In this document: one piece after another, positions 8,406-57,925 of the stretch
Position numbering within the stretch: the stretch's first letter is position 1
Layout of the letters: the number at the start of each line of letters is the position of its first letter
From: an uncultured Gammaproteobacteria bacterium
GTDB lineage: Bacteria > Patescibacteriota > Microgenomatia > Levybacterales > GWA1-39-11
Assembly (NCBI GenBank): GCA_964427615.1
Contig: CAYRUR010000001.1
Coordinates: forward strand, 219,241 to 283,240
Direction: 5' to 3'
DNA length: 64,000 nt
Program-made: the position numbers and the translations under genes
The notes under the pieces: model-generated
Told to the model about the DNA's origin: nothing
Database searches by the model: none
The model's input: the letters and a program-made list of their open reading frames with translations, nothing else

Positions 8406-8472
8406 ACTGAAAAAAGGAAATAGAAAAGCTCCTCGTTGAAAAATGATTGAGGTTTTGATAAAATAACACTCT

Positions 8473-8745
8473 ATGCCGCTTACGACAGAAGAAAAAAAAC
8501 AAATTATAGAACAAAATGCAGTTGCCAAAGGAGACACTGGCAGTCCTGAAGTACAGATTGCACTCCTTTCTAATAAAATAGAAAAATTGACTGATCACTT
8601 AAAGATCCACCAAAAAGATTCACACTCTCGCAGAGGTCTTTTGAATATGCTTTCCAAAAGAAGAAGGCTCTATAGCTTTTTAGTGAAAGTTGACCCAAAT
8701 AGAGCAAAGGAAATAGCAGGGAAAGTAGGAATGAGAACAGCATGA
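8473..8745 (+). CDS. rpsO: 30S ribosomal protein S15
   Basis: MPLTTEEKKQIIE...LTDHLKIHQKDSHSRRGLL is a typical S15 sequence. Confidence 0.92.
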   Translation: MPLTTEEKKQIIEQNAVAKGDTGSPEVQIALLSNKIEKLTDHLKIHQKDSHSRRGLLNMLSKRRRLYSFLVKVDPNRAKEIAGKVGMRTA

Positions 8746-10958
8746 AACAAATCTCCAAATCTTTAGAACTCAACGGTAAAACAATAACCCTCGAAACAGG
8801 TGTTTTAGCAGAACAAGCTTCAGCAAGTATCTTAGCCCGAATGGGAGATACCGTCGTTTTGTCCACAGTCGTAATGGGGAAAAATGATACTACCCTCAAT
8901 TATTTTCCGTTAAGCGTTGAATATGTAGAGCGTCTCTATGCTGGTGGTAGAATTAAAGGCAGCAGATGGGTAAAACGAGACGGTAGACCAACTGAGGATG
9001 CTATTTTGACCGGAAGAGTTATAGATCGCTCTATTCGCCCCCTTTTTCCTAAAGAATTAAAAAAAGATGTTCAGGTAGTTGTGACGGTGCTTTCAGTTGA
9101 CGGAGAGAATGATCCTGGAATTTTAGGAGTTGTAGCAACTTCTGCAGCACTTGCTGTTTCTAATGTTCCTTGGAATGGTCCTATTGGTACAGTGCGCGTT
9201 GGTATTATGGGTGATTCTGAAACAAGAGAAGTTGTAATTAATCCTCATGCAGCAGAATCTCAATTTTTAGATTTGGACATGATTGTTTCCTCTTCTGTTA
9301 AAGGAAATGTAATCATGATTGAGTCAGGCGCACGAGAGGTAAAAGAAGATAGTGCACTGGAAGCGATTAAAAAAGCAAAAGAGGCAAATCAACAAATTAT
9401 CGAGTTCATTCAAGAACTAGTAAAAGAAATTGGTCAGCCAAAAATAGCAGTTGCCAAAGACGAAAGTCTTGAAGAAGCAGTAATGCTGGTTGAGAAAAGT
9501 TATAAAGACAAAATTGAAAAAATTGTTGAAGAAGGCGTAAATAAAGAAGTTGGTGGACAGTTAGATGAAATCGCTTCAGAAATTAGTGAAATTGAGGAAA
9601 GCATTGAAGACAAAAAGAAAATAAAAGAAGCTGTTGAATATGTTTTCAAAAAAACAATCCGAGAGAGAATCCTAAGAGACAAGAAAAGACCTGATGGAAG
9701 AGGTATTGATGAAATTAGACCTATTTTTGCTCGGGTTGGTGTACTTCCTAGAACTCATGGTTCTGGCATTTTTACCCGTGGACAGACACAAGCTTTAAGT
9801 GTGGCTACGCTTGGTTCTCCGGCAATGGAACAATTAATAGATGGTCCTGAAGGAGAAGAGACAAAGCGTTACATGCATCACTACTTTTTCCCACCTTACT
9901 CAGTAGGTGAAACAGGAAGAATTGGTTTTCCTTCACGCCGTGAGATAGGACATGGTGCATTGGCAGAAAGAGCATTGGTAGCCGTGCTCCCTTCTGAAAA
10001 AGATTTCCCTTATGCTATTCAAGTAGTGTCAGAAGTTATGTCTTCTAATGGATCTAGCTCTATGGCTTCTACTTGTGGTTCTACTCTTGCTTTGATGGAC
10101 GCAGGAGTTCCGCTTAAAAATCCAGTGGCAGGTATTGCGATTGGTCTTATGACAAAAGGAGATGACTATTCCGTACTAACTGATATTATCGGACTTGAAG
10201 ATTTCTCAGGAGATATGGACTTTAAAGTTGCCGGAACAAAAGAAGGTATTACTGCCATTCAATTAGATGTAAAGATTGACGGCTTAACTGATGAGATGAT
10301 TGTTGAGACTTTGGAAAAAGCTAAGAAGGCACGCTTGTTCATTTTGGACAAAATGCTGGCAGTTATTTCTGAGTCACGCAAAGAAGTTTCTCAATATGCT
10401 CCTAAGATTAAGACAGTTCAGATTAATCCTGAGAAAATTGGAGAAGTTATTGGTAGCGGTGGTAAGACGATTCGCCAAATTAGCAGCACAACAGGTGCCA
10501 CTGTCGATGTAGAAGAAGATGGAACTGTAACCCTTACCTCTATTGATGAAGCAGCAGTTGAGAAAGCAGCACATTGGATTGAGACGCTTACTAAAGAAGT
10601 ACAACCGGGTGAAGTTTTTGAAGGAACAGTCAAAAGAATTTTATCATTCGGAGCATTTGTAGAATTAGTTCCTGGAAAAGAAGGTATGGTACACGTCTCA
10701 GAAATGGCTGATGAATATGTACAAAATCCTGAAGATGTTGTGCAAATTGGCCAACAGGTAAAGGTACGAGTAAAAGAAGTAGATGATCAGGGAAGAATTA
10801 ACCTTTCTATGCGATTTGGAACAGCCGCAGAAGATGTTGAAAAAAAACAAAGCCGTGAAAGAGAAAGAGGCGGTAGAAGAGAGATGGCTGGAGCAGGAAG
10901 AGTAAAAGATAATTGGCCACGCAGAGATAATGGCAACCGCAGACCTCCTCGCCGTTAA
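8742..10958 (+). CDS. pnp: Polynucleotide phosphorylase
   Basis: Two RNase PH domains, KH and S1 motifs, and an R/G-rich C-terminal tail. It overlaps rpsO by 4 nt (ATGA). Confidence 0.92.
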   Translation: MKQISKSLELNGKTITLETGVLAEQASASILARMGDTVVLSTVVMGKNDTTLNYFPLSVEYVERLYAGGRIKGSRWVKRDGRPTEDAILTGRVIDRSIRPLFPKELKKDVQVVVTVLSVDGENDPGILGVVATSAALAVSNVPWNGPIGTVRVGIMGDSETREVVINPHAAESQFLDLDMIVSSSVKGNVIMIESGAREVKEDSALEAIKKAKEANQQIIEFIQELVKEIGQPKIAVAKDESLEEAVMLVEKSYKDKIEKIVEEGVNKEVGGQLDEIASEISEIEESIEDKKKIKEAVEYVFKKTIRERILRDKKRPDGRGIDEIRPIFARVGVLPRTHGSGIFTRGQTQALSVATLGSPAMEQLIDGPEGEETKRYMHHYFFPPYSVGETGRIGFPSRREIGHGALAERALVAVLPSEKDFPYAIQVVSEVMSSNGSSSMASTCGSTLALMDAGVPLKNPVAGIAIGLMTKGDDYSVLTDIIGLEDFSGDMDFKVAGTKEGITAIQLDVKIDGLTDEMIVETLEKAKKARLFILDKMLAVISESRKEVSQYAPKIKTVQINPEKIGEVIGSGGKTIRQISSTTGATVDVEEDGTVTLTSIDEAAVEKAAHWIETLTKEVQPGEVFEGTVKRILSFGAFVELVPGKEGMVHVSEMADEYVQNPEDVVQIGQQVKVRVKEVDDQGRINLSMRFGTAAEDVEKKQSRERERGGRREMAGAGRVKDNWPRRDNGNRRPPRR

Positions 10959-11141
10959 ATTGCTCTTTTTAGCATAATTCTATTTAGGCTCAGGCATGAT
11001 TATTAAGATCTTTTGCATTTGTTACTGAAACTTCTTTTATATATCTACCAGTGAACTGATTGAAAAAGAATGAATTTTGTTTTTTTGCCTTTTTTCAAGC
11101 AAGAAGTTTATCTGTCGATCTTTTAATGCTATAATTTTTAT

Positions 11142-12275
11142 ATGGACTCAAACACTGCTTCCTCAGAAGAAAATACTACTCACGCTCAGCAACAAGATGT
11201 GGTACAGCCATCATCTTCAGCAGCAACACGTGTAGATATACAAATTCAGAAGTTAGAAGAAAAGATAAAAAATGCTACTCTGCCTCCTGACCTCCTTGAA
11301 AAATCCCAAAGTATGGTGGAGCGTTTGAAGCTGATTTCCCGAGAAAGCAGTTTTTTTATTGAGTATGACAGTACTGCTCGTTATATTGATTGGATGACAG
11401 CGCTTCCTTGGGAAAATGCTTCTCAGGATATTTTGGATTTAAATCATGCCAAGCAGGTGTTTGAAAAACACCATTACGGGATGAAGGATGTAAAGGAGAA
11501 AGTAATGGAGTATTTATCTATTATGATTTTAAATAAAGCACGGGGAGAAGAATTTGCTAGAGCACCTATTATTTCACTTGTAGGACTAGTAGGTACTGGT
11601 AAAACAACCGTTGCTTACTCTATTGCTGAGGCATTGGGCAGAAAAATTGAGAGAATTCCTTTTGGAGGTATGGGATCTGCCAAACAATTAAGAGGTCAAT
11701 CACGCTTTTCGCCTGATGCAGAGCCAGGACTGGTGATGAAAGCTATCAGAAGAGCGGGTACTAAAAATCCGGTTATTCTGCTTGATGAAATTGATAGAGT
11801 GAGTGCTGATGCTAGAGCAGATATTATGGGTGTGTTAGTAGAAATGCTAGATCCTGGACAAAATAAATTTTTTACTGATCATTTTATTGATTATCCATTT
11901 GATTTATCTCATGTGCTTTTTATTGCTACATCCAATAATACAAAAGACATTTCAACAGCAGTACTTGATAGACTTGAGATCATTCAAATGCCTTCCTATA
12001 ATGACGATGAGAAGACAGTAATTGCCAAAAATTACATTTTCCCCAAAGTTTTAAAAGAGTCAGGACTCACAGAACGTGATATAGTAATAGATGATAATGT
12101 ATGGCCAGAGATTGTGCGTCCTCTTGGATATGACTCAGGAATTAGAAGTTTGGGTAGGACTATTCAAGGAATGGTAAGAAGAATTGCGTTATATACACTT
12201 GAGGGACGTATTCCTCAGGGGAAAGGATTTCGGGTAACAGTGCAAAACGTGAAACAACTGGTACCACAATGGTAA
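11142..12275 (+). CDS. Lon-like AAA+ ATPase module without the S16 protease domain and without most of the Lon N-domain
   Basis: Walker A is GLVGTGKTT and Walker B is ILLDEIDRV. Sensor-1 is FIATSNN and the Arg finger is LDRLEIIQM. The Lon-specific stretch HHYGMKDVKEKVMEYLSI is present. The ORF stops 19 nt before rnj with no protease domain downstream. TATAAT lies 6 nt before the ATG. Confidence 0.75.
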   Translation: MDSNTASSEENTTHAQQQDVVQPSSSAATRVDIQIQKLEEKIKNATLPPDLLEKSQSMVERLKLISRESSFFIEYDSTARYIDWMTALPWENASQDILDLNHAKQVFEKHHYGMKDVKEKVMEYLSIMILNKARGEEFARAPIISLVGLVGTGKTTVAYSIAEALGRKIERIPFGGMGSAKQLRGQSRFSPDAEPGLVMKAIRRAGTKNPVILLDEIDRVSADARADIMGVLVEMLDPGQNKFFTDHFIDYPFDLSHVLFIATSNNTKDISTAVLDRLEIIQMPSYNDDEKTVIAKNYIFPKVLKESGLTERDIVIDDNVWPEIVRPLGYDSGIRSLGRTIQGMVRRIALYTLEGRIPQGKGFRVTVQNVKQLVPQW

Positions 12276-12293
12276 AATAGGTAAAATAAGCAT

Positions 12294-13943
12294 ATGGAGA
12301 AAAAAGTATCACTTATTCCAATCGGCGGTATTGGAGATGTAACCAAAAATATGTATGTGTATGAGTATCAGGACGAGATACTCATTGTGGATTGTGGCAT
12401 TGGATTTGCTGATGAGTCCATGATTGGCGTTGATTTGCTTATTCCGGATATTACCTACTTAAAACAAACAAAGAAAAAGATCGTAGGTATGATACTTTCT
12501 CATGGCCATGAGGACCATATTGGAGCTATCCCTTGGATTCTACCTCAGCTGCCAGCCTTTCCTATCTACGGTTCAACACTTACTGCAGCTTTTGCCAATG
12601 AAAAAATAAAGGAATTTAATATCAATAGAAAGGTAGAGGAAATGGAATTTTGTAAAGAAATTACCGTAGGCTCATTTAAGGTAACTCCGGTAAGAGTCAC
12701 TCACTCTATTCTTGATGCTGCGAATCTTTTTATTAAGACCCCTGCAGGCAATTTTTATCATGGCAGTGATTTTAAATTCGATTTTACTCCAGTAGATGGA
12801 AAGCAAACAGATATTCGCAAGATTGCACAAATGGGAGAAGAAGGCATTATGTGTGCCTTGATAGATAGTCTTGGGAGTGAAAAAAGTGGACTTTCTCTAT
12901 CAGAAAAGAGCTTATCTGAAAGTTTTGAGGAAGAGTTTCAAAAGACAAAAGGCAAAATTTTTGTTTCTACCTATTCTTCTAATATTTCTCGGTTTAACCA
13001 AGCAATTGATTTAGCTAAAAAATACAATCGCAAAGTAATGCTCATGGGACGTTCATTTTTGCGCTCTCGAGATGTTGGTAGAAGACTGGGATACATGGAT
13101 TTTCCTGAGACTATGGAATTAAAACCTCATCAAGTCAAGAATATTCCTGCCAATCAAGTACTCATTTTAGTTGCCGGAAGCCAAGCACAGATTTCCTCAG
13201 CTTTGGTGCGCATTGCCAATGATAATGACCGTGATATCACTATTAACAAAGGAGATACTGTTATTTTCTCCTCTGATCCAATTCCAGGAAATGAAGAAAG
13301 TATTAACGCGTTGATTGATACCATTTCTAAAAAACAGGCCAGAGTCAGATATAGTCAAAGTGAAGATGATTATCATGTGTCAGGACATGGATCTCAAGCG
13401 GATATCAAACTGATGATTTCTCTTACGAATGCACAATACCTCTTACCAATTGGTGGACAGTATAGACACATGGTAGGATTTCGGGAGATTGCTGAAAGTA
13501 TGGGATATGAGGAAAATCAGGTTATTATTCCTGAAAATGGCAGTGAGATAGTGTTCACACAGGGGAAGTATAGTGTGGGCAGAAAAATTCCAGTTGCCTC
13601 GGTTATGCTAGATCAAATTACAGGCCAGGAAATGGATAATTATGTAGTCAGAGACAGGATGAAAATTGCACAAGAAGGAATTGCTATCATCATCGTTGAG
13701 ATCCATGAGCAAACAGGAAAAATTCTTTCAGAGCCAGATATTATAACTAAAGGATTTACGTTGAATAACAAAAAAAGATATGTTCAAGGGCTTTATGCAA
13801 TTTTAAGACAAACATTTGGTGAGAGAAAAGATAAGGTAAATAACTGGGGATACTATAAAAAAATTATTGAAGAACGGGGTGAAGAACTGTTTTTTAAGGA
13901 GGGGAAAGAGCCTCTGGTTGTGCCAGTCATCATTGAATCATAA
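12294..13943 (+). CDS. rnj: Ribonuclease J (metallo-beta-lactamase/beta-CASP)
   Basis: HGHEDHIG motif and the RNase J-type N-terminus KVSLIPIGGIGDVTKNM. Confidence 0.88.
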   Translation: MEKKVSLIPIGGIGDVTKNMYVYEYQDEILIVDCGIGFADESMIGVDLLIPDITYLKQTKKKIVGMILSHGHEDHIGAIPWILPQLPAFPIYGSTLTAAFANEKIKEFNINRKVEEMEFCKEITVGSFKVTPVRVTHSILDAANLFIKTPAGNFYHGSDFKFDFTPVDGKQTDIRKIAQMGEEGIMCALIDSLGSEKSGLSLSEKSLSESFEEEFQKTKGKIFVSTYSSNISRFNQAIDLAKKYNRKVMLMGRSFLRSRDVGRRLGYMDFPETMELKPHQVKNIPANQVLILVAGSQAQISSALVRIANDNDRDITINKGDTVIFSSDPIPGNEESINALIDTISKKQARVRYSQSEDDYHVSGHGSQADIKLMISLTNAQYLLPIGGQYRHMVGFREIAESMGYEENQVIIPENGSEIVFTQGKYSVGRKIPVASVMLDQITGQEMDNYVVRDRMKIAQEGIAIIIVEIHEQTGKILSEPDIITKGFTLNNKKRYVQGLYAILRQTFGERKDKVNNWGYYKKIIEERGEELFFKEGKEPLVVPVIIES

Positions 13944-14009
13944 TTAGATAGTGCTTCTCGTGATTTTACCATACAGAGTTGATAATAGTGTATAATTCTT
14001 CATATTGCT

Positions 14010-16136
14010 ATGGCACGAAAGAAATACAAAAAAAGAAAAGGAGGAGTAAAGTTAAAGAAAAATACTGTTTACACTCTTTTTTCTGTTGGATTATTATTTT
14101 TAGGGGTTTTTCTTCTGGCTTCTTACACACAAAATGGACCTTTGCTTGCTACTGCTCACAGCTACTTATCTTACTTTTTTGGTCCCCTTTCTTTTTTGGT
14201 GCCTATTAACTTTATTCTTATTGCGTTGATGTTGACTAGGTTAAAGTCTCGTTTTGCTCAGCCGACATTGTCTATTGGTTTTCTTTTTTTCTCAGCATGT
14301 TTTATTTCGCTTCTTGGTTCAGGAGTGGCAGGACAGATGATGAAGGATAATCTGGTCGCATTTTTAGGAGGCGCTTTAGCTGTTATTTTTCTGATTTTAG
14401 GAACATTTCTTGGGATTATTGTTTTTTTAAATATTTCGTTACAGCAACTCTTTCAAGGAATTATGGTTGCTTCTCAGGACTTAGCACATGTGTTTAAGAC
14501 GCGCATTGTGCCTCTTTTTAAAGTCCAAAAAGTAAATCTTCCAGATCCTAAGCAAATTACCATTAAAGGCTTGCCACAAGAGATGCCTGCCTCCAGTCCT
14601 AAAGTCAATGAAAGACGTCCTGAAGTGCCTAAACAAGATCCAAAGAAGGCAGAAATATCTGATGAATTAGTATTAAATCAGCCGTTGGAGATGGGAGTCT
14701 GGGAGTACCCTCCTTTAGCCTTACTGTCTGATCAGGCAGATAAAAAAGCAGAGCGAGGAGATGTAAAAGCTACTGCTAGCACAATAGAAAAAACGCTGCA
14801 AAGCTTTGGAATAAAAGCTCGGGTAGTAGAAATTAATTTAGGACCTTCGGTTACTCAGTATGCTATAGAAATTGCGTTAGGAACTAAGCTCTCTAAAATT
14901 ACTGGTCTTGCCAATGATTTGGCTTTGGCAACAGAAGCACCAACCGGTCAGGTCAGAATTGAGGCGCCAATTCCAGGAAGAAGTTTGGTAGGTATTGAAA
15001 TTCCTAATAGGTCTCTTGAAGTAGTATCTCTCAAAACACTGCTTGCTTCCTCTCAGATGCAGAAGAACAAATCAAAACTAGCTATTCCACTGGGTCTTGA
15101 TGTAGCGGGTAATCCGGTGATTGCTGATATTACCAAAATGCCTCACGTACTTATTGCCGGTACCACCGGGTCTGGTAAATCTGTGTCCATGAATACATTT
15201 ATTTCCTCTATCTTATTTAGAGCTTCTCCATCAGAGGTTAAGATGATTATGATTGATCCTAAGCGCGTGGAGCTTACCGGATATAATGATATTCCTCATC
15301 TGCTTACTCCTGTGGTGGTAGAAGCAGATAAAAGCGTTTCAGCACTTAAGTGGGCATTAAAAGAGATGGACAAGCGGTATACAAAATTTGCAGAGGCAGG
15401 AGTACGTAATCTCGACTCCTATAACGAACTTTCAGGATTTCAAGCAATTCCTTACATTGTTATTTTTATTGATGAATTTGCAGATTTGATGGCGCTTGCT
15501 CCAGCCGAGGTGGAGGATTCCATTACCAGACTTGCCCAAATGGCTCGTGCTACTGGTATTCATTTAGTACTGGCAACCCAAAGACCATCAGTAGATGTTA
15601 TTACTGGTCTTATTAAAGCCAATGTGCCGTGTCGTATGGCTTTTAGCGTTTCTTCTATGGTAGATAGTAAGGTAGTGTTGGATGCACCGGGAGCAGAAAA
15701 ACTGTTGGGCAAAGGTGATATGTTGTATATTCCTCCGGATCAAGCAAAACCTACCCGTATTCAAGGCTGTTTTGTCTCAGAACAAGACACAAAACGGTTA
15801 GTAAACTTTATTAAAGCACGTGGTATTCCGGTACAGTACACAACAGAAGTAGTAGAGCAAGAAGTACATATTAAAGGAAGAGGGGCTTCTGGGAGTGCAA
15901 CAGCCAGTGGAACAGACTCAGATAAGGATGAGTTATTTGCCGAAGCAGTACGTATTGTGTGTCAGTATGATAGAGCGTCTTCGTCTCTTTTGCAAAGAAA
16001 GCTTTCTATTGGGTTTAACCGTGCTGCTCGTATTATGGAACAACTGGAACAGTTTGGTGTAGTAAGTCCTGGAGATGGTTCCAAGCCTCGTGATGTTATT
16101 ATTACCAACCCCGACGAGTTTTTAAGCCAAGTGTAG
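14010..16136 (+). CDS. ftsK: DNA translocase FtsK/SpoIIIE
   Basis: N-terminal TM segments. Walker A is GTTGSGKS, followed by DPKRVEL and Walker B FIDEFADL. A C-terminal winged-helix gamma domain is present. Confidence 0.9.
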   Translation: MARKKYKKRKGGVKLKKNTVYTLFSVGLLFLGVFLLASYTQNGPLLATAHSYLSYFFGPLSFLVPINFILIALMLTRLKSRFAQPTLSIGFLFFSACFISLLGSGVAGQMMKDNLVAFLGGALAVIFLILGTFLGIIVFLNISLQQLFQGIMVASQDLAHVFKTRIVPLFKVQKVNLPDPKQITIKGLPQEMPASSPKVNERRPEVPKQDPKKAEISDELVLNQPLEMGVWEYPPLALLSDQADKKAERGDVKATASTIEKTLQSFGIKARVVEINLGPSVTQYAIEIALGTKLSKITGLANDLALATEAPTGQVRIEAPIPGRSLVGIEIPNRSLEVVSLKTLLASSQMQKNKSKLAIPLGLDVAGNPVIADITKMPHVLIAGTTGSGKSVSMNTFISSILFRASPSEVKMIMIDPKRVELTGYNDIPHLLTPVVVEADKSVSALKWALKEMDKRYTKFAEAGVRNLDSYNELSGFQAIPYIVIFIDEFADLMALAPAEVEDSITRLAQMARATGIHLVLATQRPSVDVITGLIKANVPCRMAFSVSSMVDSKVVLDAPGAEKLLGKGDMLYIPPDQAKPTRIQGCFVSEQDTKRLVNFIKARGIPVQYTTEVVEQEVHIKGRGASGSATASGTDSDKDELFAEAVRIVCQYDRASSSLLQRKLSIGFNRAARIMEQLEQFGVVSPGDGSKPRDVIITNPDEFLSQV

Positions 16137-16143
16137 TATTTTT

Positions 16144-16770
16144 ATGAGAAAAATCAGTGAAATCCTCAAAAATGAGAGAAAGGCACAAAATCTTGCTCTT
16201 GAAGATGTTGAGAAAACTACCAAAATAAAAAAAGAGTTTTTGAGGGCTATTGAGGAAGGAAAATTTCATCAGCTTCCTTCAGAATCCTATGCTTTAGGCT
16301 TTGTTAAAAATTATGCTAGTTTTTTAGGAGTTAATTCACCTGAAGTGGTGCCACTCTTCAGAAGAGAGTATAAAGCAGAAAAAGTTGAAGTCATTCCTCA
16401 TTACACTAAAAATCAACCTAAAAAAAGACAGAAATTTTATTTTTCCTATAAAACAATTTTGGCAGGAGTTGGTGCTTTTATTTTACTCGGATATATTCTT
16501 TTTCAGTTCCACTCTTTTTTTGTGGGGCCAAAATTGAGCATAGATGCGCCGCAAGAAGGGGCAGTAGTAAAGGACAATATCGTAGAAGTAAAGGGAAAAA
16601 CGGATCCCTATGCTACGGTTCTGGTAGAAGGAGAGGAAGTATATGTGCAAATTGATGGCACCTTTCAAAAGTCTTTGTATTTATTCTCAGGAGAAAAGAA
16701 CATAAAGATAGTTGCAAAAGATAGGAACGGCAAACAAACCACTGCACAAGTTTCAGTACAAGTTCAGTAG
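16144..16770 (+). CDS. rodZ: RodZ-like HTH (XRE) cytoskeleton protein with a TM segment and a DUF4115-like C-terminus
   Basis: N-terminal HTH LRAIEEGKFHQLPSESYALGFVKNYASFLGV; TM helix ILAGVGAFILLGYILF. Confidence 0.6.
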   Translation: MRKISEILKNERKAQNLALEDVEKTTKIKKEFLRAIEEGKFHQLPSESYALGFVKNYASFLGVNSPEVVPLFRREYKAEKVEVIPHYTKNQPKKRQKFYFSYKTILAGVGAFILLGYILFQFHSFFVGPKLSIDAPQEGAVVKDNIVEVKGKTDPYATVLVEGEEVYVQIDGTFQKSLYLFSGEKNIKIVAKDRNGKQTTAQVSVQVQ

Positions 16771-17378: not shown

Positions 17379-17426
17379 TTACTTCTCCTTTCCTCAAAAC
17401 GCTTTGTATATTATAATGGCAGTTAC

Positions 17427-18371
17427 ATGAAGAATGTTGTTGTTGTGGGTGGTGGAACGGGTGTTTTTACGGTTCTTTCAGGATTACGCAATCATCCCTA
17501 TAATCTAAAAGCTATTGTTTCTATGGCTGATAATGGAGGTTCTACCGGCCAATTGCGAGAAGAGTTTGGAGTTCTACCTCCAGGAGACATAAGACGTGCG
17601 CTTATCGCCCTTTCTCACACTGATAATAAAATTCTTTCTCAATTATTTAATTATCGTTTTGATGAGGGGACGTTAAAAGGGCATAGTATGGGGAATCTGC
17701 TTTTAACAGCTTTGGAGCGTATTACAGGAAGTTTTGAAAGTGCAGTAAAGGAGGCAGTAAAAATCCTCAATGTAAAGGGAGAAGTTATTCCAGTAACATT
17801 GCAGAGTACACAACTATGTGCAGAACTGGAAAATGGAAAAATAGTAAGAGGTGAGACCAATATTGATATTCCCAAACATGATGGCAGTCTTAAAATAAAG
17901 CGCATCTTTTTAGATCCGGTGGTATCTGCAAATGAAGAGGCGCTTGAAGTTATTAGAACAGCAGATGTTATTATTTTAGGACCTGGAGATGTGTACACTT
18001 CTATTATGCCTAACTTATCAGTCAAAGGTATTACTGATGCTATTAAAAAATCAAAAGCAAAAGTGGTGTATGTGGTCAATATCATGACTAAATTTGGGGA
18101 AACGTATGCCTTTAAAGCCTCTGACTTTGTAAACGTGATAGAACAAGAATTGGGTAAAGGAGTAATTGATTATGTGGTAGTAAATACCCAAAAATCACCA
18201 GATGATATTCTAAAGAAATATGAAGCTGAGAAAGATAGGCCAGTTATTTTTGACAAAGAAAATTTTACTGATTCAATCCAGGTAATTACTGGTAATTTTT
18301 TAAGAAAAGGACAGTTCTTACGCCATGATCCGCATAAGCTAGCAGAAGCTCTTTCCTCGATTATTCAATAA
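17427..18371 (+). CDS. YvcK/CofD-family (UPF0052) gluconeogenesis factor-like protein
   Basis: VVGGGTG...MADNGGSTGQLR motifs. Confidence 0.82.
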   Translation: MKNVVVVGGGTGVFTVLSGLRNHPYNLKAIVSMADNGGSTGQLREEFGVLPPGDIRRALIALSHTDNKILSQLFNYRFDEGTLKGHSMGNLLLTALERITGSFESAVKEAVKILNVKGEVIPVTLQSTQLCAELENGKIVRGETNIDIPKHDGSLKIKRIFLDPVVSANEEALEVIRTADVIILGPGDVYTSIMPNLSVKGITDAIKKSKAKVVYVVNIMTKFGETYAFKASDFVNVIEQELGKGVIDYVVVNTQKSPDDILKKYEAEKDRPVIFDKENFTDSIQVITGNFLRKGQFLRHDPHKLAEALSSIIQ

Positions 18372-18792
18372 TAGTAATTCCTACATGGTGCAAAGGGTTA
18401 AATTCCTGTTTTTGCAGATTTTGAATGGGAAGAAAAAGAGGTATAGGAGCATTTTTCCACTCGAACCATTCTAAGTTCTCACATTTTTCTGGTTCCATAA
18501 CTTTTGCTTCTCCTTCATCATAATCACAGAGCATAAAAATAGTAATGTAATGCTTTCCTTCCTGCTCAAAAATATCATTCGTAATACTCCCAAAACGAAT
18601 ATTTTTTACTTTCAAAGATGTTTCTTCAAATACTTCTCTTTGTGCACAACTTTCTAGTGTCTCTCCAAACTCTAAATGTCCTCCAGGAAGTCCCCATGTT
18701 CCTTTGCCATGAGATCCTTTTCTTTTTAAGAATAATAGTTGGTTATCTTTTATTACAAAAACTCCAACTCCTATACGAGGGTGCTGGTTCAT
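18361..18792 (-). CDS. NUDIX hydrolase
   Basis: Nudix box GGHLEFGETLESCAQREVFEETSL. Confidence 0.85.
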   Translation of the reverse strand: MNQHPRIGVGVFVIKDNQLLFLKRKGSHGKGTWGLPGGHLEFGETLESCAQREVFEETSLKVKNIRFGSITNDIFEQEGKHYITIFMLCDYDEGEAKVMEPEKCENLEWFEWKNAPIPLFLPIQNLQKQEFNPLHHVGITIIE

Positions 18793-18800
18793 AGCTTTTA

Positions 18801-19478
18801 TTATATACGATGCTGCAATAGTTGAGGCAGGCTTTCTAAGGAAGGGAGGATGTACTCTTCTTTTAGTCCATACTGCTGAAATTCATTCTTTAACGTGAAT
18901 CCGGAAGTAACCGCTATAAAGGCCAGTCCTCTCGATTTTGCAGCCAGAAAATCATTTAGTCCATCACCTACGTATATCACTTCTTTTCCAGTAATATTTC
19001 GTTTCAACAACTGTTCTAGAGCTATATCAAACACTTTAGGGTTTGGTTTGTGAACAGGGGTGTCCTCGCTTCCATGAATAAATACGTACTGGTCTGATAA
19101 CTCGGGAAGATAAGTTTTGATAGTGTCCTGAATGGTTATTCTAGGGCTAGAACTTAATACTCCTAGTAAGTAGCCTTGTGTTTTTAGAGTCAATACTGTT
19201 TGAAGAGTATATGAGAATGGTTGAGGAATAAATTTTGTTTTTCTTTGAAATAGAAGAAAATCGGTTGTCAATAAATGTCCGTCTTCTTTTTCCCATAATC
19301 CTGATAGTATCCCTTGAACAGGTTTCCCCCAGTGTTGTTTTAATTGTTCTAGGCTAATCGGTGGGAGTGATTTCTTTTGGGCATAGTTGTTGAAAAGGTC
19401 AAAGCAAGTATGAAATGTAGACACTTTTGTATCATCCCAATCAAAAATAATTGCTTTTATGGAGGAAAGATTATTCAT
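18801..19478 (-). CDS. HAD-superfamily phosphatase
   Basis: Motif I IIFDWDDT; a downstream GDGLND-type motif (VGDGLNDFLAA). Confidence 0.75.
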   Translation of the reverse strand: MNNLSSIKAIIFDWDDTKVSTFHTCFDLFNNYAQKKSLPPISLEQLKQHWGKPVQGILSGLWEKEDGHLLTTDFLLFQRKTKFIPQPFSYTLQTVLTLKTQGYLLGVLSSSPRITIQDTIKTYLPELSDQYVFIHGSEDTPVHKPNPKVFDIALEQLLKRNITGKEVIYVGDGLNDFLAAKSRGLAFIAVTSGFTLKNEFQQYGLKEEYILPSLESLPQLLQHRI

Positions 19479-19588
19479 GGAGTGAGTATATCAGAACTGG
19501 CAAAGGTGTAAAAGCTTAAAGTGCATTATTCATAAGTATTTTTGGGAAAGTTCTTTCAAAAAATAGTTTTGCTTTTAAGTTGATTATC

Positions 19589-20212: not shown

Positions 20213-20353
20213 AGAGATATTATAGTGTTTTTGTGCAGCAATTTCAAACTATAGGACTTAAAAATGCGTTAATCAACACGATTACAGGAGAATACAGAAG
20301 GCGGACTTGTAGAATGTTGAGTTAATTTTATTCAGAGAAGAATACTATGCTTC

Positions 20354-23967: not shown

Positions 23968-24021
23968 AATCTCAGTATAGCAGGAATAGGTAATTGTTTT
24001 AAAGCATTCTGTTATGAGTAA

Positions 24022-25302: not shown

Positions 25303-25427
25303 ATGCTCATTGTAAGCATAAAGAGACAGAGTATGCAACTTGTTACCTAAAAATTTCGTTTGGTGTTTATTTTCCTGATGAAAGTAGTATCTCGTCTGAT
25401 GCATAAAAAATGGTATAATTTTTGCCA

Positions 25428-41195: not shown

Positions 41196-41210
41196 AAGGA
41201 GAAATATACT

Positions 41211-43244: not shown

Positions 43245-43282
43245 AATGCGTTTTTGATTATACCAAATAATTACAATAAGCG

Positions 43283-44383: not shown

Positions 44384-44448
44384 ATGCTTTTTTTATTTTA
44401 GCACACGGGTATGAAGGCTTAGAACTAACTAAATGCTATACTTGCAGG

Positions 44449-47246: not shown

Positions 47247-47292
47247 ATTCGATTGCATTCATTCTTCTCTTTACCTATAATGTACTCACTGT

Positions 47293-48474
47293 ATGGCTCG
47301 CAAAAAAATCTCTGAATACGCAGCAAAGAACTTATTGTACCGTTTTTTAGACACTCCTTATACTGGTATTAGTATCCACTCATCACAAGATTTAGAAAAA
47401 ATACAAACCCTCTCAACTGAGAAAACATATGTCGTAAAAGTTGATGAAGGGGTAAAGGGAAGGTTTAAGAAAGGGTTGGTGTTACTTGATGTTACCAAAG
47501 AGGACATACCTGCATCCATAAAAAAATTAGAAGAAAAAGGATATACCCAGTTTTTAGTTGAAGAGTTTTACCATTATAAGGCAGAAGAAGAGCATTATTT
47601 AGCAATTGAAAGAGTACGAGAGGGATACAAATTGCTGTATTCTGAAAAAGGTGGCATTGCCATTGAGGAACATGTAGCAGCAGTACAAGAAAAGATTTTC
47701 ACTACCAAAGAAGGAATAGAATCTGTTGCTACAGAATTACATCTGGATCCTTTACTGTTGCTCAATATTTTGGAGGTTTTTGATGCGTATTACTTCTCCT
47801 TTTTAGAAATAAATCCTTTTATTAAAAAAGACAACCGCTTTATTCCTGTTGACCTAGCAGTAGAAGTAGACAGTGCAGGTGCATTTTTTGTGCAGAACGG
47901 CTGGAAGCAAGAGGATATGGTGGAAGAAGGAAAAGACAAAACAAAAGAGGAAAAAAATATTGATATGCTCTCTTCCAAAAGCCAGGCTTCTTTTAAATTG
48001 AATATGTTGCATACAGATGGTTCTCTTTTTATGCTCTTATCAGGTGGGGGAGCAAGCCTGGTAGTAGCAGATGAGGCATATAATTTAGGTTTTGGCAAAG
48101 AAGTAGCAAATTATGGCGAATATAGTGGCAATCCAACAGAAGAGGAGACATATATTTACACGAAAAATTTGTTACAGCTTTTACTACAATCAAGCGCAAA
48201 ACAAAAAATGCTGATAATAGCAGGGGGAGTGGCCAATTTTACGGATGTAAGGATTACGTTTAGGGGTATTATAAAAGCACTGGATGAAGTAAAAGAAACC
48301 TTGCAACAAGAAGAGGTAAAAGTATATGTAAGACGAGGTGGACCTAACCAAGAAGAAGGTTTGGCAATGATGAAAGAATTCTTAACAAAAGAACAGCTGT
48401 ATGGACAGGTAAGTGGTCCTGAAATTGTCTTAACAGATGTTGTTAAAAATGCAGTTGCGTTACTTGAAAAATAA
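47293..48474 (+). CDS. aclB: ATP-citrate lyase beta (small, ATP-grasp) subunit
   Basis: By-eye alignment to human ACLY N-terminus. MARKKISEYAAKNLLYRFL matches MSAKAISEQTGKELLYKFI. SGGGASLVVADE...ANYGEYSGNP and IIAGGVANFTDV...VRRGGPNQEEGL also match. Confidence 0.85.
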   Translation: MARKKISEYAAKNLLYRFLDTPYTGISIHSSQDLEKIQTLSTEKTYVVKVDEGVKGRFKKGLVLLDVTKEDIPASIKKLEEKGYTQFLVEEFYHYKAEEEHYLAIERVREGYKLLYSEKGGIAIEEHVAAVQEKIFTTKEGIESVATELHLDPLLLLNILEVFDAYYFSFLEINPFIKKDNRFIPVDLAVEVDSAGAFFVQNGWKQEDMVEEGKDKTKEEKNIDMLSSKSQASFKLNMLHTDGSLFMLLSGGGASLVVADEAYNLGFGKEVANYGEYSGNPTEEETYIYTKNLLQLLLQSSAKQKMLIIAGGVANFTDVRITFRGIIKALDEVKETLQQEEVKVYVRRGGPNQEEGLAMMKEFLTKEQLYGQVSGPEIVLTDVVKNAVALLEK

Positions 48475-51514: not shown

Positions 51515-51547
51515 AGCATTTAGAGTTGAGGTATAATAAGACATAGT

Positions 51548-51835
51548 ATGGGTGCTGAGGATGAACTGGGAAAGGAGTATTTAATACATCGACTACCGGT
51601 TGATGCAAAAATAAAGAGAAGAGAGGGTGATGCAGTAACGACTCATCGGGAAGTAGCAGGAGCAATTGATGTTCACTTGTCTCAGTCTCCAGAAGAAAAA
51701 TTAGATGAGATTAATAGGAAGAGAAAAAACATTGAAAAAATATTCAAACAAATGCATACTGATGCAGAGGTTACTTGTGAAGTAATCTATCCTCGATCAA
51801 CAGGAAAGAATGAGGTAGTAGAAGATGATAGTTAA
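51548..51835 (+). CDS. Hypothetical small protein
   Basis: 95-aa ORF overlapping the murB start by 11 nt. Confidence 0.3.
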   Translation: MGAEDELGKEYLIHRLPVDAKIKRREGDAVTTHREVAGAIDVHLSQSPEEKLDEINRKRKNIEKIFKQMHTDAEVTCEVIYPRSTGKNEVVEDDS

Positions 51836-54299: not shown

Positions 54300-54735
54300 A
54301 AGGAATCAGGCTTGCTGTTTTTTGTATATACTCATGATACTGTTTGGCAAAGTGTGCTTTGAGCAAATCTTCCTCAAATTGGACTTTTATATAAAGATCT
54401 ACTACCAAAATAACAAAAGCCGCAAATCTACCAAAGGTAAAGAAGTTAAGTAATAGTGCAAGAGCAATCAAGATTACTCCTGTATACATCGGATGGCGGA
54501 TATATTTATATGGTCCGGTAGTAATAAGGGTACTTCCTTTTCCTGGTTGAGGAGTGATTTGAAAGGTGGTAGTTCTCATATGCCAAAAAGCCCAGAAAAT
54601 AAGGAAAAACCCCAGGCTCATGATAAGGAGGGTAACAGGGTTTTGAGGGACAACAACTCCGCTTAAGAATAAATACAGCAGGACAAAAAATTGGATACCA
54701 ACCAGAATGAGTGATTTAGGATCATTTGAAAGCAT
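54289..54735 (-). CDS. ICMT/PEMT-family membrane methyltransferase
   Basis: Multi-TM protein with a YKYIRHPMYTG...EE motif. Confidence 0.75.
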   Translation of the reverse strand: MLSNDPKSLILVGIQFFVLLYLFLSGVVVPQNPVTLLIMSLGFFLIFWAFWHMRTTTFQITPQPGKGSTLITTGPYKYIRHPMYTGVILIALALLLNFFTFGRFAAFVILVVDLYIKVQFEEDLLKAHFAKQYHEYIQKTASLIPFVY

Positions 54736-54781
54736 ATATTTATTATATAGAGGTAATAAGTTTTTTACAAACGTAAGTTGA

Positions 54782-57397
54782 TTACTTTAAATAAAACGTC
54801 TCTCCATCGGAGATCTTGGATTTGGGTTTGTTCTTGTCCTCAGTTTGTTTTGACTGTTTTTCTTGATTTTTATCATGTGGTTTTTTATCGGTATATTGTT
54901 TTTGCTGAGCTTGATGATGTTGTACATTTTTATGGTCTTTTGATTGTTTTTTTTCAGAAGAAGGATTGTGTTGTGGATGCTGTTTTGCAGTCTGTTGAGT
55001 TGGTTGGCCTTGTTTTGCCTGTGCTTTTTCTTCTTGCTTTTGGGCAGGATGATTTGTTGGTTGTCCGGCTGAATGGTGGGGTTTTTCCTGTTGTTTGACT
55101 GGAGTTTTTACCTCTTGGTTTTTGACAGAAGCAGTAACTGATAAGTCAGATTGTTTTTGCTGTGGTAGATTACTTGGTGCTCTTTGCTCTTGTTTAGGTG
55201 CTGGCCCGTCATATTTTTTATATTCAGGTTTTTCTACTACTAAAGGAGTTATCGTTTTATAATATCTTTCCTGAGATCCTTTTAAGACTTTTGGCCTATT
55301 TTGGTTACGACTATTAGGTAACGGCAAAGTTTGAGCCAAAAATGGAGAGCTTGTCATACCATCAATAGAGAGTCTGGTAATAATTTGATGCCTTCCAAGT
55401 GCGAGAATATCCTCTGCCTGGTATCTTTCTCCAAATTCTTTGGCTAAAATATCTAAATCCTCAGCTCCCACTAAAAAGGTCATGAGTGTGCCGACATTTC
55501 CAAAAATAGCACTTTTCAGTTCCGGTGGAAGTTGAGCCATGTACTGATTAGCAAGTGTTAAATTTAGACGATACTTGCGTGCCTCAGATAAGATTTTAAT
55601 AAAGGAGGTAGTGGCAAAGTTCTGGAACTCGTCAACATAGAGAAAGAAGTCCTTACGTTCTGCTTCAGGTATATACACACGATTCATGGCCGCCAATTGT
55701 AGTTTGGTAATAGTCATAGCACCTAGCAATGCAGAGTTATCTTCTCCCATTTTTCCTTGTGAAAGGTTGAAAAGCAGGATTTTTCTGTTGTTCATAATGT
55801 CTTCCAGATCAATAGTTGATTTAGGGTGTCCTACGATATTGCGGATAACATTGGAGGATAAAAATTGTCCTACTTTATTTAAAATTGGAGAGGTTGATTC
55901 TGTCATCATACGGTCATTCATTTTATTGAACTCATCCAGCCAGAAGGCTTTGATGACAGGATCAGTAACATATGTTTCTACAACTCTAGTGCGATATTTG
56001 TCATCTGTTAGAATGCGTGGTACGAGCATAAGTGTAGCATTGGGAATTTCAAGTAAAGTTAGAATAGTATTGCGTAAAATATACTCCAGTCGCGGTCCCC
56101 AAGAGTTTCCGTATAATTTATAGAAAATCGCTACGATACCGGAGGCAATCAGATCTTTTTGTGAAAGATCTTCATCCAATGGATTTAAATGAAATGATTT
56201 GCCTGTTCCTTCTGTGGGACTCAGATATACTACATCATTAATGCGATATGAAGGAATATAATCTAGGATTGTTTCACATAAATCTCCGTGAGGATCAATA
56301 ACTGCCAGTCCTTCACCATTTCTAATATCGTTGATTACCATATTAGCAATAAGCGTTGATTTTCCGACACCTGTTTTTCCGATGATATAGGTGTGTTTTC
56401 TCCTATCAATACGCTTCATACCAAAAGTAGAGAGGGTATTGCGAAAATAGGTTTTTGCAAAAAAATTAATTTCTTTTTTTCCTTCTGCATCAAGTCCTAA
56501 AGCAATGGGGAGGTCTTCTGGAGCATCAGAAAAAATTGTTTTTGCCCAGGAGATGTTGTGGATAGTTGAAAGTTGTTTGCCAGGAAAATGGAAAAGGGTA
56601 GCAATCTCTGAAAGATTTAGTATTTGGCCTGTAGGGATAAAAGATCCGCTACGGGTGATAAAAGCAGTATGTAGCTTGTCCTTTTGCCATAGATAAGGTT
56701 TTTTAAGCGACAGGCTGTTTCCGCTTGCGTTATTAAAGCCTGAAAAAGCAGTGGCGATTTGCAAAAAGAGGTCTTTATTAGGGCTTTTGACAAAGAGGCG
56801 GATACCTACCTTAAAACCATGTTGTCCTATTTTTTCACCAATCACCGCTGCATGAGGATTGGTAGAAGTAGTGCCGTCTGCGTTGGTGGTCTTTTTTTCC
56901 ATTTGTGCTCTTCCACTTGACTGCCAACTATTGCCAATTGGGACCAATAAATACTGAATGACCACCTGATCTTCTTGGGTAAGCTTTGATAACAAGCCTA
57001 ATAGTGAGGAAAGAGGGTCTACTTCCTTAAAATCAGTATATGTTTTTAAGGGGAGCAGATGTGATTGGTTGAGTGTAAGTTGTCCTTCGCGGATAGGAGC
57101 AGTAGGTTGGAGAACATACTTTAGGTAGTCTTCTTGCAAATGTCTTATTTGGGAATGTGGGTACTGTGAGTAAATCTGGCTTTCAATAAAGGGGGCAAGT
57201 GCTTTTGGGAGGACAACATAAAAATAAATAGTCTGGTCAAAAACAGCAATTTCAAAACTGATAGGAATGCCCTTTTTGATGAAAAAATAATGGGTTTTGC
57301 GCAGATTGGTAAGACTGGCTAACAACTGTACCATTACTTCCGGAGTTTCTTCACCAGTGCGTGGTGTTTTTATCTCTAAAATAGCCTTTTCTTCCAT
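54782..57397 (-). CDS. VirD4/TraG/TraD-like type IV coupling protein ATPase, soluble, with a long Gln/Lys-rich disordered tail
   Basis: Walker A is GKTGVGKST, followed about 20 aa later by VIDPHGD and then NPLD. Walker B is FLYVDEFQNF, and RLNLTLANQYMAQL is the T4CP Q-motif. No N-terminal TM helices. SD AGAGGT upstream. Confidence 0.7.
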   Translation of the reverse strand: MEEKAILEIKTPRTGEETPEVMVQLLASLTNLRKTHYFFIKKGIPISFEIAVFDQTIYFYVVLPKALAPFIESQIYSQYPHSQIRHLQEDYLKYVLQPTAPIREGQLTLNQSHLLPLKTYTDFKEVDPLSSLLGLLSKLTQEDQVVIQYLLVPIGNSWQSSGRAQMEKKTTNADGTTSTNPHAAVIGEKIGQHGFKVGIRLFVKSPNKDLFLQIATAFSGFNNASGNSLSLKKPYLWQKDKLHTAFITRSGSFIPTGQILNLSEIATLFHFPGKQLSTIHNISWAKTIFSDAPEDLPIALGLDAEGKKEINFFAKTYFRNTLSTFGMKRIDRRKHTYIIGKTGVGKSTLIANMVINDIRNGEGLAVIDPHGDLCETILDYIPSYRINDVVYLSPTEGTGKSFHLNPLDEDLSQKDLIASGIVAIFYKLYGNSWGPRLEYILRNTILTLLEIPNATLMLVPRILTDDKYRTRVVETYVTDPVIKAFWLDEFNKMNDRMMTESTSPILNKVGQFLSSNVIRNIVGHPKSTIDLEDIMNNRKILLFNLSQGKMGEDNSALLGAMTITKLQLAAMNRVYIPEAERKDFFLYVDEFQNFATTSFIKILSEARKYRLNLTLANQYMAQLPPELKSAIFGNVGTLMTFLVGAEDLDILAKEFGERYQAEDILALGRHQIITRLSIDGMTSSPFLAQTLPLPNSRNQNRPKVLKGSQERYYKTITPLVVEKPEYKKYDGPAPKQEQRAPSNLPQQKQSDLSVTASVKNQEVKTPVKQQEKPHHSAGQPTNHPAQKQEEKAQAKQGQPTQQTAKQHPQHNPSSEKKQSKDHKNVQHHQAQQKQYTDKKPHDKNQEKQSKQTEDKNKPKSKISDGETFYLK

Positions 57398-57487
57398 GTG
57401 ATTTTTACCTCTAAATTATACCAGACAAAGGGGGAAATAAAAACGGAAAGAAGAATATACATGAGACATGATATAATAGTAACATAT

Positions 57488-57925
57488 ATGAAATTAGAAC
57501 CAGGCATGACAGCTCCTCTTTTTACTGCAAAAGACCAAAACGGAGAAGAACATAGCTTGCAAGATTACAGAGGTAAAAAAGTTTTTCTTTATTTTTATCC
57601 AAAAGACGATACTCCCGGATGTACTAAAGAAGCTTGTGGAGTACGGGATAATTTCCAGGAGATAGCAAAAGAGGTGGTAGTGTTAGGGGTCAGCAAAGAT
57701 AGTGTAGCAAGCCATAAACATTTTGCAGAAAAATATCACCTTCCTTTCACACTTCTCTCAGATGAGAAGGGAGAGATTCTTGAAAAATACGGCACAGACG
57801 GCACGTTTTTTCCTAAAAGAACCTCATTTATTATTTCTGAGGATGGAGTGATTGAAAAAGTATATGAAAAAGTAAAACCAGAAGAACATGCCACGGAGAT
57901 TCTTCAAGACCTGGCAGCCCTCTAA
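57488..57925 (+). CDS. bcp: Bcp-type peroxiredoxin (thiol peroxidase)
   Basis: FYPKDDTPGCTKEAC motif. Start chosen at MKLEPGM, with TATAAT about 10 nt upstream. ORF-track start is 57398. Confidence 0.82.
   Translation: MKLEPGMTAPLFTAKDQNGEEHSLQDYRGKKVFLYFYPKDDTPGCTKEACGVRDNFQEIAKEVVVLGVSKDSVASHKHFAEKYHLPFTLLSDEKGEILEKYGTDGTFFPKRTSFIISEDGVIEKVYEKVKPEEHATEILQDLAAL

Follow-up and report, generated by a model that had tools for sequence, protein, structure and literature searches.

The DNA analysed here is a 64,000-nt stretch (positions 219,241 to 283,240 of contig CAYRUR010000001.1, assembly GCA_964427615.1; called the window below) from an uncultured bacterium of the Patescibacteria, or Candidate Phyla Radiation (CPR), and the element in question is a TATAAT-like hexamer that stands a few nucleotides before the ATG of many of its genes. 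About 51 genes lie in the window, among them nusA, a short infB, rpsO, pnp, a Lon-like AAA+ module, rnj, ftsK, a rodZ-like gene, yvcK/CofD, a split transketolase, a MOFRL glycerate kinase, nth, alaS, rpoB, rpoC, rpsL, rpsG, fusA, ATP-citrate-lyase-like subunits, murB, a type IV coupling protein (T4CP) and bcp. The GC content is 38%. The YvcK protein shares 63-69% identity with proteins of Candidatus Levybacteria metagenome-assembled genomes, nearly all remaining matches being to Patescibacteria, and the Logan runs SRR7082966 and SRR7082976 contain assembled sequence of the same organism. Scans for tRNAs and Rfam families gave no match in the 64 kb, so that no leader RNAs or riboswitches account for the upstream regions. 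An earlier note on this DNA had drawn attention to hexamers 4-13 nt upstream of the ATG of nine genes, unaccompanied by a Shine-Dalgarno (SD) motif, and had read them as a mark of probable leaderless mRNAs within a mixture of initiation modes.

Hexamers close to the start codons

A hexamer was counted as −10-like if it had the form TAnnnT with at least five of six matches to TATAAT, spacing was taken as the number of bases from the end of the hexamer to the ATG, and the pattern was inspected in the 60 nt 5′ of each long open reading frame (ORF). The recurrence described in the earlier note is borne out: a hexamer stands at spacing 4-13 in 20 of the 51 genes (39%), at spacing 5-8 in ten (20%) and at a spacing of exactly 6 in seven, and all 20 cases start with ATG. 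Dinucleotide shuffling (2000 shuffles) of the 40 nt upstream of 49 of the 51 starts, which include 19 of the cases at spacing 4-13, gave an expectation of 4.7±2.0 with a maximum of 12 for that range, of 2.0±1.4 for spacing 5-8, and of 0.52 with a maximum of 4 for spacing 6. Among the other 2,002 ATGs of the window only 4.3% have a hexamer at spacing 4-13 (Fisher p = 4e-13). Counted from the promoter side, 8 of the 50 TGnTAnnnT sites of the window lie 13 nt or less before a gene start, against 0.28 expected, and with a neutral ORF caller that takes the first ATG and is blind to the motif, spacing 5-8 is found in 9 of 52 genes and spacing 4-13 in 18 of 52.

Ten genes have the hexamer at spacing 6-8. 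On the plus strand, rpsO (8436..8475) carries TTGAAA, 17 nt, TGATAAAAT with the hexamer at 8459-8464, and 8 nt before ATG 8473, no other possible start lying between this ATG and the preceding in-frame stop. The lon-like AAA+ gene (11130..11144, plus strand) has TGCTATAAT at 11130-11135 and 6 nt before ATG 11142, an arrangement of the leaderless type for which the earlier note gave the right spacing at a position, 11121, that is about 9 nt off. At rnj (12273..12296, plus strand) TAAAAT at 12282-12287 is followed by 6 nt and ATG 12294, an alternative TGgTAAAAT at 12273-12278 having a spacing of 15, and at nth (25414..25430, plus strand) TGGTATAAT at 25414-25419 lies 8 nt, not about 9 as had been noted, before ATG 25428, the start also used in the public call of 206 residues. 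The MOFRL glycerate 2-kinase gene (25300..25314, minus strand), divergent from nth, has TACAAT at 25309-25314 and 6 nt before ATG 25302. The other five, all on the minus strand, were not among the nine genes first noted: the NUDIX gene (18790..18805; TATAAT, 7 nt, ATG 18792), whose hexamer overlaps the stop codon of the HAD gene; the HAD hydrolase gene (19476..19512; TTTACA, 16 nt, TGATATACT, 6 nt, ATG 19478); the AAA_18 kinase-like gene (20210..20247; TTGAAA, 17 nt, TATAAT, 6 nt, ATG 20212), with an 11/12 match to the sigma-70 consensus; the gene for the N-terminal transketolase subunit (23965..24003; TTTAAA, 18 nt, TGCTATACT, 6 nt, ATG 23967); and that for a PEMT/ICMT-like methyltransferase (54733..54747; TATAAT, 6 nt, ATG 54735). 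The Lon-like protein (11142-12275, plus strand) matches only the Lon AAA+ module (profile positions 254-566 of 795) and is without the N-terminal domain and the protease domain, and the transketolase (21991-23967, minus strand) is split into genes for an N- and a C-terminal subunit that lie 114 nt apart, the former with its leaderless-type promoter and the latter with neither an SD motif nor a clear −10 box.

At wider spacing, and as first noted, ftsK (13991..14012, plus strand) has TATAAT at 13991-13996 and 13 nt before ATG 14010, a short-leader type, yvcK/CofD (17412..17429, plus strand) has TATAAT at 17412-17417 and 9 nt before ATG 17427, and bcp (AhpC/TSA; 57472..57490, plus strand) has TGATATAAT at 57472-57477 and 10 nt before ATG 57488; the hexamers and spacings given earlier for rpsO, rnj and MOFRL hold in the same way. 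To these are added, on the plus strand, rpoC (36991..37008; TATACT, 9 nt, ATG 37006), which is ambiguous, rpsL (40763..40781; TAAAAT, 10 nt, ATG 40779), within the 23-nt gap after rpoC, the gene for an ATP-citrate-lyase-like beta subunit (47276..47295; TATAAT, 11 nt, ATG 47293) and a hypothetical gene of 95 codons, hyp95 (51532..51550; TATAAT, 10 nt, ATG 51548). On the minus strand follow the gene for a cyclophilin peptidyl-prolyl isomerase (43242..43262; TGGTATAAT, 12 nt, ATG 43244) and that for a pepP-like M24 peptidase (44381..44400; TGCTAAAAT, 11 nt, ATG 44383), so that at least 11 cases, counting the five above, come on top of the first nine. The rodZ-like gene (16134..16146, plus strand) is doubtful: TAGTAT is present, as had been noted, but 4 rather than 5 nt before ATG 16144, it matches the consensus at only four of six positions, includes the stop codon of ftsK, and is not conserved in orthologues. 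Outside the range first noted, an acyltransferase-like gene (4610..4653, minus strand) has TTGACA, 18 nt, TACTAT preceded by TGC, and 11 nt before ATG 4612, the hexamer again matching at four of six positions. The beta-subunit gene is the first of two adjoining ATP-citrate-lyase-like genes (47293-50261, plus strand), a citrate-binding and ATP-grasp beta-like subunit being followed by a CoA-ligase fused to a citryl-CoA lyase/citrate synthase C-terminal domain.

Promoter character and the choice of start codons

When the window cases are aligned by their hexamers, TG stands at −15/−14 in about 10 of 25 and a block of T-T-G columns appears 17 nt upstream, AAA_18 (TTGAAA-17-TATAAT), rpsO (TTGAAA-17-TGATAAAAT) and HAD (TTTACA-16-TGATATACT) being examples close to the full consensus. 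The relatives pooled for comparison comprise about 1,100 genes from 70-odd related Patescibacteria loci; three Gracilibacteria loci, which use a different genetic code (L049, L052 and L059), are included in the pooled histograms and left out of the analyses of promoter character, permutations, caller-independent sites and SD motifs. Of 121 start-proximal hexamers in these loci, 37% carry TG, the figure for other hexamers being 5.7% (p = 3e-24), and 23% have a TTG separated from them by 16-18 nt, compared with 7% (p = 3e-8). At spacing 5-8, TATAAT itself is found 37 times where 5.0 are expected, and the other 19 permutations of three A and three T are flat there, except ATAATT, which is TATAAT shifted by one base. 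With the TG, the TTG of a −35 element and this sequence specificity, the hexamers have the properties of sigma-70-type −10 boxes rather than of a ribosome-binding signal, and are taken as putative promoters in what follows.

That the hexamers might not be promoters at all, being products of AT-richness or of stop codons, or else an A/U-rich non-SD ribosome-binding site (RBS) of the group B type known from Bacteroidetes, on polycistronic mRNAs transcribed from distant promoters, has some observations on its side. The GC content is low, the upstream stop codon lies within two of the hexamers, about 20 genes of the window have neither an SD motif nor a nearby −10 box, and no terminator above chance separates genes in 8000-27999, where 17 were found and 13.8 in shuffles. 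A generic sigma-70 scan of the same range returned 52 sites, compared with 52.7 in shuffles. A global excess of promoter-like sequence is thereby rejected, and it is only in where they lie with respect to the ATG that the sites depart from randomness. Against such an origin stand the lack of enrichment of hexamers of the same composition, the TG and TTG elements at the right distances, and a peak that is only 2 nt wide. The Bacillus phage SPbeta, which is AT-rich (100 kb, GC 35%, 95 genes) and SD-using, 61% of its genes having an SD-like motif, served as a control and has a hexamer at spacing 4-13 in only 4 of its 95 genes, with no peak. AT-richness as the sole cause is rejected on the permutation test and this control, and hexamer frequencies no higher than expected for AT-rich DNA, named beforehand in the earlier note as grounds for refutation, are not what is seen near starts. 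An origin in stop codons is likewise rejected as a general cause, since it fits only the NUDIX and rodZ-like cases. SD-like motifs at operon-internal genes speak against the hexamer as a general RBS, and the divergent gene pairs (MOFRL/nth, pepP and bcp) lie beyond the reach of an upstream operon promoter. Taken together, this makes a non-promoter origin very improbable.

Two promoters of the window share an element. The 14-mer TTGACATTTATTTT, made up of the −35 box and spacer, occurs exactly at 4640-4653 (minus strand), before the acyltransferase-like gene, and at 58802-58815 (plus strand), in two otherwise unrelated promoters; with up to one mismatch it is found three times against 0.17 expected. 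The second of these, TTGACA-17-TATAGT (58802-58830), lies 5′ of a tandem duplication of ATTCGTAAGAG (two copies, 58839-58860, plus strand) within the leader of about 38 nt of a gene of 167 codons at 58869.

The position of a promoter relative to a gene is only as good as the start codon assigned to it, and starts were assigned from ORFs. If the true starts lay downstream, the promoters would have normal leaders covering the supposed first codons, and the public call for MOFRL does differ from ATG 25302. In 16 of the 20 hexamer genes, however, no possible start lies between the preceding in-frame stop and the ATG, and Pfam and NCBIfam profiles (metallophos, NUDIX, CofD, HAD, S15, AhpC-TSA, glycerate kinase) begin 1-20 residues past the proposed ATG; because of both, the coding regions cannot extend upstream. 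The YvcK N-terminus, M-K-K-V-V-V-I-G-G-G-T-G, is kept in orthologues, and the peak at 6-7 nt persists under the neutral first-ATG rule, which together leave mis-assigned starts as the least probable of the explanations considered. The MOFRL ORF opens at TTG 25485, its Pfam domain starting at ORF residue 82; read from ATG 25302 the protein has 426 residues and covers positions 2-409 of 410 of the glycerate 2-kinase NCBIfam profile from its residue 4. The public call (24022-25404, minus strand; 16596-17978 in locus L001; 460 residues) is thus probably 34 residues too long and looks like a start-calling error due to the absent SD motif. In bcp (ORF 57398-57925), the AhpC-TSA domain begins at ORF residue 36, five residues after ATG 57488, which the public call also uses. 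Domain boundaries and conserved N-termini lend indirect support to the predicted translation from the promoter-proximal AUGs.

A scan of the pooled loci that does not depend on gene calls, for TGnTAnnnT followed by the ATG of an ORF of at least 100 codons, finds 19, 17 and 7 sites at spacing 6, 7 and 8, with 2-5 per bin at spacing 9-12 and mostly 0-3 at other distances. At spacing 6-8 the start codon is ATG 43 times, GTG never and TTG once. AUG as the start codon, as proposed for leaderless mRNAs, is thus what both the window and the pooled scan display, and that starts are confined to ATG agrees with recognition of a 5′-terminal AUG. A pyrimidine at −1 is modestly enriched in the pooled relatives.

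The spacing peak is found again in related genomes and in individual orthologues. In Levybacteria-like loci (117 genes) it lies at spacing 6 (10 hexamers) and 7 (6), and among the 980 genes of the other Patescibacteria-type loci the counts at these two spacings are 37 and 33, the remaining bins holding about 6 each. Of the individual groups, the Levybacteria-like, Saccharimonadia and unclassified Patescibacteria loci show the peak clearly and the Parcubacteria-labelled ones weakly; the three non-CPR loci have no hexamers at spacing 6-7, and the archaeon-labelled loci among the relatives show no such peak. Orthologues of the lon-like gene, in which the hexamer is TATACT, keep the 6-nt spacing while the spacer itself differs (TGCTATACT-gaatgt-ATG in L006, TTATACT-gtttgc-ATG in L007, TGCTATAAT-ttttat-ATG here). 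Spacings of 5-6 are found for rnj in L005, where the arrangement is TATAAT-6-ATG, and in L017, spacings of 5-7 for rpsO in L005 and L007, and of 9-10 for alaS in five relatives. In eight relatives yvcK has spacings of 6-12 (7-12 in L005, L006, L007 and L009, and 6-8 in the Saccharimonadia loci L064 and L072). The spacing at ftsK, 13 in the window, is 6 in L007 and 8 in L008, and L009 and L019 have an SD motif, GGAG, instead. The initiation mode of ftsK thus appears to turn over between related Levybacteria, and turnover between initiation modes has also been described by Zheng et al. (PMC3160421).

A probable mixture of leaderless and Shine-Dalgarno-led initiation

The mixture of initiation modes proposed in the earlier note shows in the distribution of SD motifs, which are present at operon-internal or leadered genes and depleted at hexamer genes. 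Operon-internal genes with SD motifs are rpsG (41196..41213, plus strand; AAGGAG, 9 nt, ATG 41211), murB, pnp, yceG, the hypothetical hyp308 and the gene for a FAD-oxidase. Leadered genes with SD motifs are that for T4CP (57395..57420, minus strand; TGGTATAAT, then 17 nt including GAGGT, ATG 57397), which has a short leader, that for a serB-like HAD protein (AAGGAAGG) and the gene at 2283-3503 (GGGAGGTG); of these, rpsG and T4CP, together with the last two, are the examples first noted, and all four hold. In the pooled relatives an SD-like motif accompanies 9% of genes with a hexamer at spacing 5-8, 2% at 9-13 and 24% of other genes (p = 6e-5). Spacing and SD statistics, which the earlier note had called for genome-wide, give a peak at 6-7 nt and fewer SD-like motifs at hexamer genes when run on the window and the related loci. 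Two genes have an extended −10 box much further upstream, fusA (start 44526) with TGCTATACT at 44437, about 83 nt away, and nusA (ATG 4954) with TGGTAGAAT at 4856, about 92 nt away, and would therefore have long leaders, that of fusA being without an SD motif. The str operon to which rpsL, rpsG and fusA belong is broken (40779-46637), three genes on the minus strand (metallophosphoesterase, cyclophilin, pepP) separating rpsL-rpsG from fusA. T4CP itself is a TraD/TrwB-like protein of 871 residues (54782-57397, minus strand).

The promoters could be real and their closeness to the ATG no more than a by-product of genome compaction, with leaders of 1-7 nt, ordinary 30S initiation on unstructured 5′ ends without an SD motif, and no selection for a 5′-terminal AUG. 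In keeping with this, half of the cases are at spacing 9-13, intergenic gaps are mostly 8-70 nt, a continuum reaches spacings of 16-27 (DUF2130, T4CP, alaS), and alaS orthologues are consistently at 9-10 nt. The gaps upstream of the hexamer genes range from 8 to 183 nt; some of these genes are divergent or follow gaps of more than 100 nt, and others, namely NUDIX (8 nt), rnj (18) and rpsL (23), stand in short same-strand gaps such that the −35 element falls within the upstream gene. Many promoters thus lie in gaps of 8-70 nt or within the 3′ end of the upstream gene, for which reason most genes appear to have a promoter of their own. In the long gaps, before lon-like (183 nt), pepP (142), AAA_18 (141), MOFRL/nth (125) and HAD (110), the −10 box is still 6-11 nt from the ATG, and a lack of space therefore does not explain its position. 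The distribution, moreover, is no smooth continuum but has a sharp mode at 6-7 nt, both here and among the roughly 1,100 genes of the relatives. This mode and the ATG-only starts at spacing 6-8, expected if a 5′-terminal AUG is the initiation signal, point the same way, and compaction alone is an unlikely account.

The best reading, to which a probability of about 0.8 may be given, is that leaderless and near-leaderless mRNAs are mixed here with SD-led initiation. A leaderless mRNA is defined molecularly by a primary 5′ end at the start codon, with a 5′ untranslated region (UTR) of 0 nt, or of 5 nt or less. Across 49 bacteria, transcription starts are centred 7 bp downstream of the −10 box (PMC12641261), and with a start 7 nt after the −10, a 6-nt spacer would therefore put +1 on the A of the ATG. 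The ten genes with spacing 6-8 (lon-like, rnj, rpsO, nth, MOFRL, NUDIX, HAD, AAA_18, transketolase-N and PEMT) are, to judge from their sequence, most likely leaderless with a 5′-AUG, and the ten at spacing 9-13 most likely near-leaderless, with a predicted 5′ UTR of about 2-7 nt that is too short for an SD motif. Each prediction of the leaderless reading that can be examined at the level of sequence is borne out: the 6-7 nt peak, the TG and −35 elements, the exclusive use of ATG, the depletion of SD motifs, the spacing in orthologues and the SPbeta control.

Mechanistically, transcription would proceed from ordinary sigma-70-type promoters, often with a TG-extended −10 and, about 17 nt 5′ of it, a −35 of the TTG type, and RNA polymerase would begin the transcript on, or a few bases from, the A of the ATG. 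The 5′-terminal AUG would then be recognised directly together with initiator tRNA, dispensing with SD/anti-SD pairing. In other bacteria leaderless translation takes a 70S/IF2-dependent route. SD-led initiation would be kept for operon-internal genes such as rpsG, murB, pnp and yceG and for leadered ones (T4CP, serB-like HAD and the gene at 2283-3503).

Several points weigh against this reading. With 10 of the 20 cases at spacing 9-13, half are not strictly leaderless. The rodZ-like and rpoC cases are doubtful, rpoC having an alternative start, GTG 37000, with AGGTG between hexamer and ATG, and being likely co-transcribed with rpoB, and at rnj the alternative −10 at spacing 15 is better equipped, with both TG and a −35. 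Some hexamers stand in very short gaps, including the two (NUDIX and rodZ-like) that take in the upstream stop codon, and read-through polycistronic transcripts may coexist with those from the hexamers. The site total of the sigma-70 scan, equal to that of shuffled sequence, counts on the same side. The motif was already known when the starts of MOFRL, nth, rpoC and bcp were picked; domain boundaries in Pfam and NCBIfam back those of MOFRL, nth and bcp, and public calls those of nth and bcp, the one for MOFRL differing. Every one of the related loci comes from the surroundings of yvcK, and there are near-duplicates among them. Finally, +1 is placed by a distance rule that varies by a few bases, and the distance is more variable in N. 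lyticus, the sole CPR species examined, possibly owing to less accurate mapping of transcription start sites (PMC12641261).

Two other features of the window may be recorded here. The infB gene (6000-7463, plus strand) encodes only 487 residues, from the G domain to the C-terminus, without the long N-terminal region of a typical bacterial IF2, and at 27940-30883 (plus strand) a gene for a protein of 741 residues with a Baseplate_J-like domain has a 41-nt overlap with a sortase gene.

Scope and comparison with known systems

Whether leaderless, AUG-only initiation extends across the lineage is a less certain matter. On balance the peaks in the related loci tip slightly in favour of its being a major mode of the Patescibacteria, or at any rate of Microgenomates/Levybacteria and Saccharimonadia, the signal being weaker in Parcubacteria-labelled loci. 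If so, Actinobacteria and Deinococcus-Thermus would be joined by the CPR as a third large group of bacteria in which leaderless mRNAs are pervasive. The CPR makes up a very large share of bacterial diversity, is almost uncultured and has unusually small ribosomes. Leaderless initiation is already well understood, so that it is the extension to the CPR, and no new mechanism, that would be new. It could be linked to the reduced translation apparatus of the CPR, with its short bS1, frequent loss of bS21 and, in some Parcubacteria, loss of the anti-SD (PMC9297842). Tsurumaki et al., who described the short bS1 and the anti-SD loss, did not report leaderless genes (PMC9297842). In literature on leaderless genes in Patescibacteria, CPR, Saccharibacteria, Parcubacteria and Microgenomates only incidental mentions were found, a search that did not cover the per-genome group C assignments of GeneMarkS-2, and the preprint on the N. 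lyticus transcriptome contains no text on transcription start sites or UTRs.

Several consequences would follow. Gene callers trained on SD motifs can misplace starts in CPR genomes, the public MOFRL call, apparently 34 residues too long, being an example. Regulation through the 5′ UTR, by riboswitches or small-RNA targeting, would be unavailable to a large share of genes, and the 64 kb have no Rfam match. Cassettes of promoter and start codon without a 5′ UTR could be designed for the newly tractable Saccharibacteria, and the pattern adds a data point to the debate on whether leaderless initiation is ancestral.

The closest known counterpart is group C of GeneMarkS-2, found for the most part in Actinobacteria and Deinococcus-Thermus and having a Pribnow box at a distance of 6-8 nt before the start (PMC6028130); it is the same gene class as the TA-led genes of Zheng et al. 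(PMC3160421). About 20-40% of genes or operons are affected (PMC6028130; PMC3160421), a figure of 25-50% of operons being given for group C (PMC6028130), and the window has 20% of its genes at spacing 5-8 and 39% at 4-13. The architecture predicted for the window agrees with it in having the −10 box at 6-8 nt. With M. tuberculosis, M. smegmatis, C. glutamicum, S. coelicolor and D. deserti it shares this position of the Pribnow box, the absence of an SD motif and the presence of an RBS at internal or leadered genes. The differences begin with lineage and composition, the window belonging to a Levybacteria-like member of the Patescibacteria with a GC content of 38%, as against 60-70%. Group C and TA-led genes are first in their operons; several window cases, being divergent or behind gaps of more than 100 nt, may be so too, and others stand in same-strand gaps of 8-23 nt, where read-through may occur. 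The window has TATAAT boxes near consensus and often TG-extended, a sizeable second class at spacing 9-13, and promoters in gaps of 8-70 nt. Only ATG is seen at the window genes, whereas mycobacteria also use GUG. That GUG serves at mycobacterial leaderless starts as well was reportedly found by Shell and co-workers in 2015.

Archaeal leaderless genes (group D) likewise combine a promoter element at a fixed distance, the lack of an SD motif and two start models per genome, but the archaeal TATA box and BRE lie about 22-26 nt upstream (PMC6028130), whereas the window has a bacterial −10 at 6-8 nt, with −35 and extended −10 elements. With the non-SD genes of Bacteroidetes (group B) the window has in common an AT-rich genome and few SD genes (about 21% by a 4-mer criterion, for pooled genes from the neutral caller). 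The group B motif, however, precedes all genes, internal ones included, and is not a promoter (PMC6028130), whereas the window motif has the features of a promoter and GGAG-type SD motifs stand before internal genes, and membership in this group was rejected for these two reasons. Isolated leaderless mRNAs, such as lambda cI transcribed from PRM and tetR of Tn1721, are rare exceptions in their own genomes. In both, the transcript starts at the A of the AUG and translation needs the 5′-terminal AUG. In the genome represented by the window, by contrast, such initiation would be a major mode.

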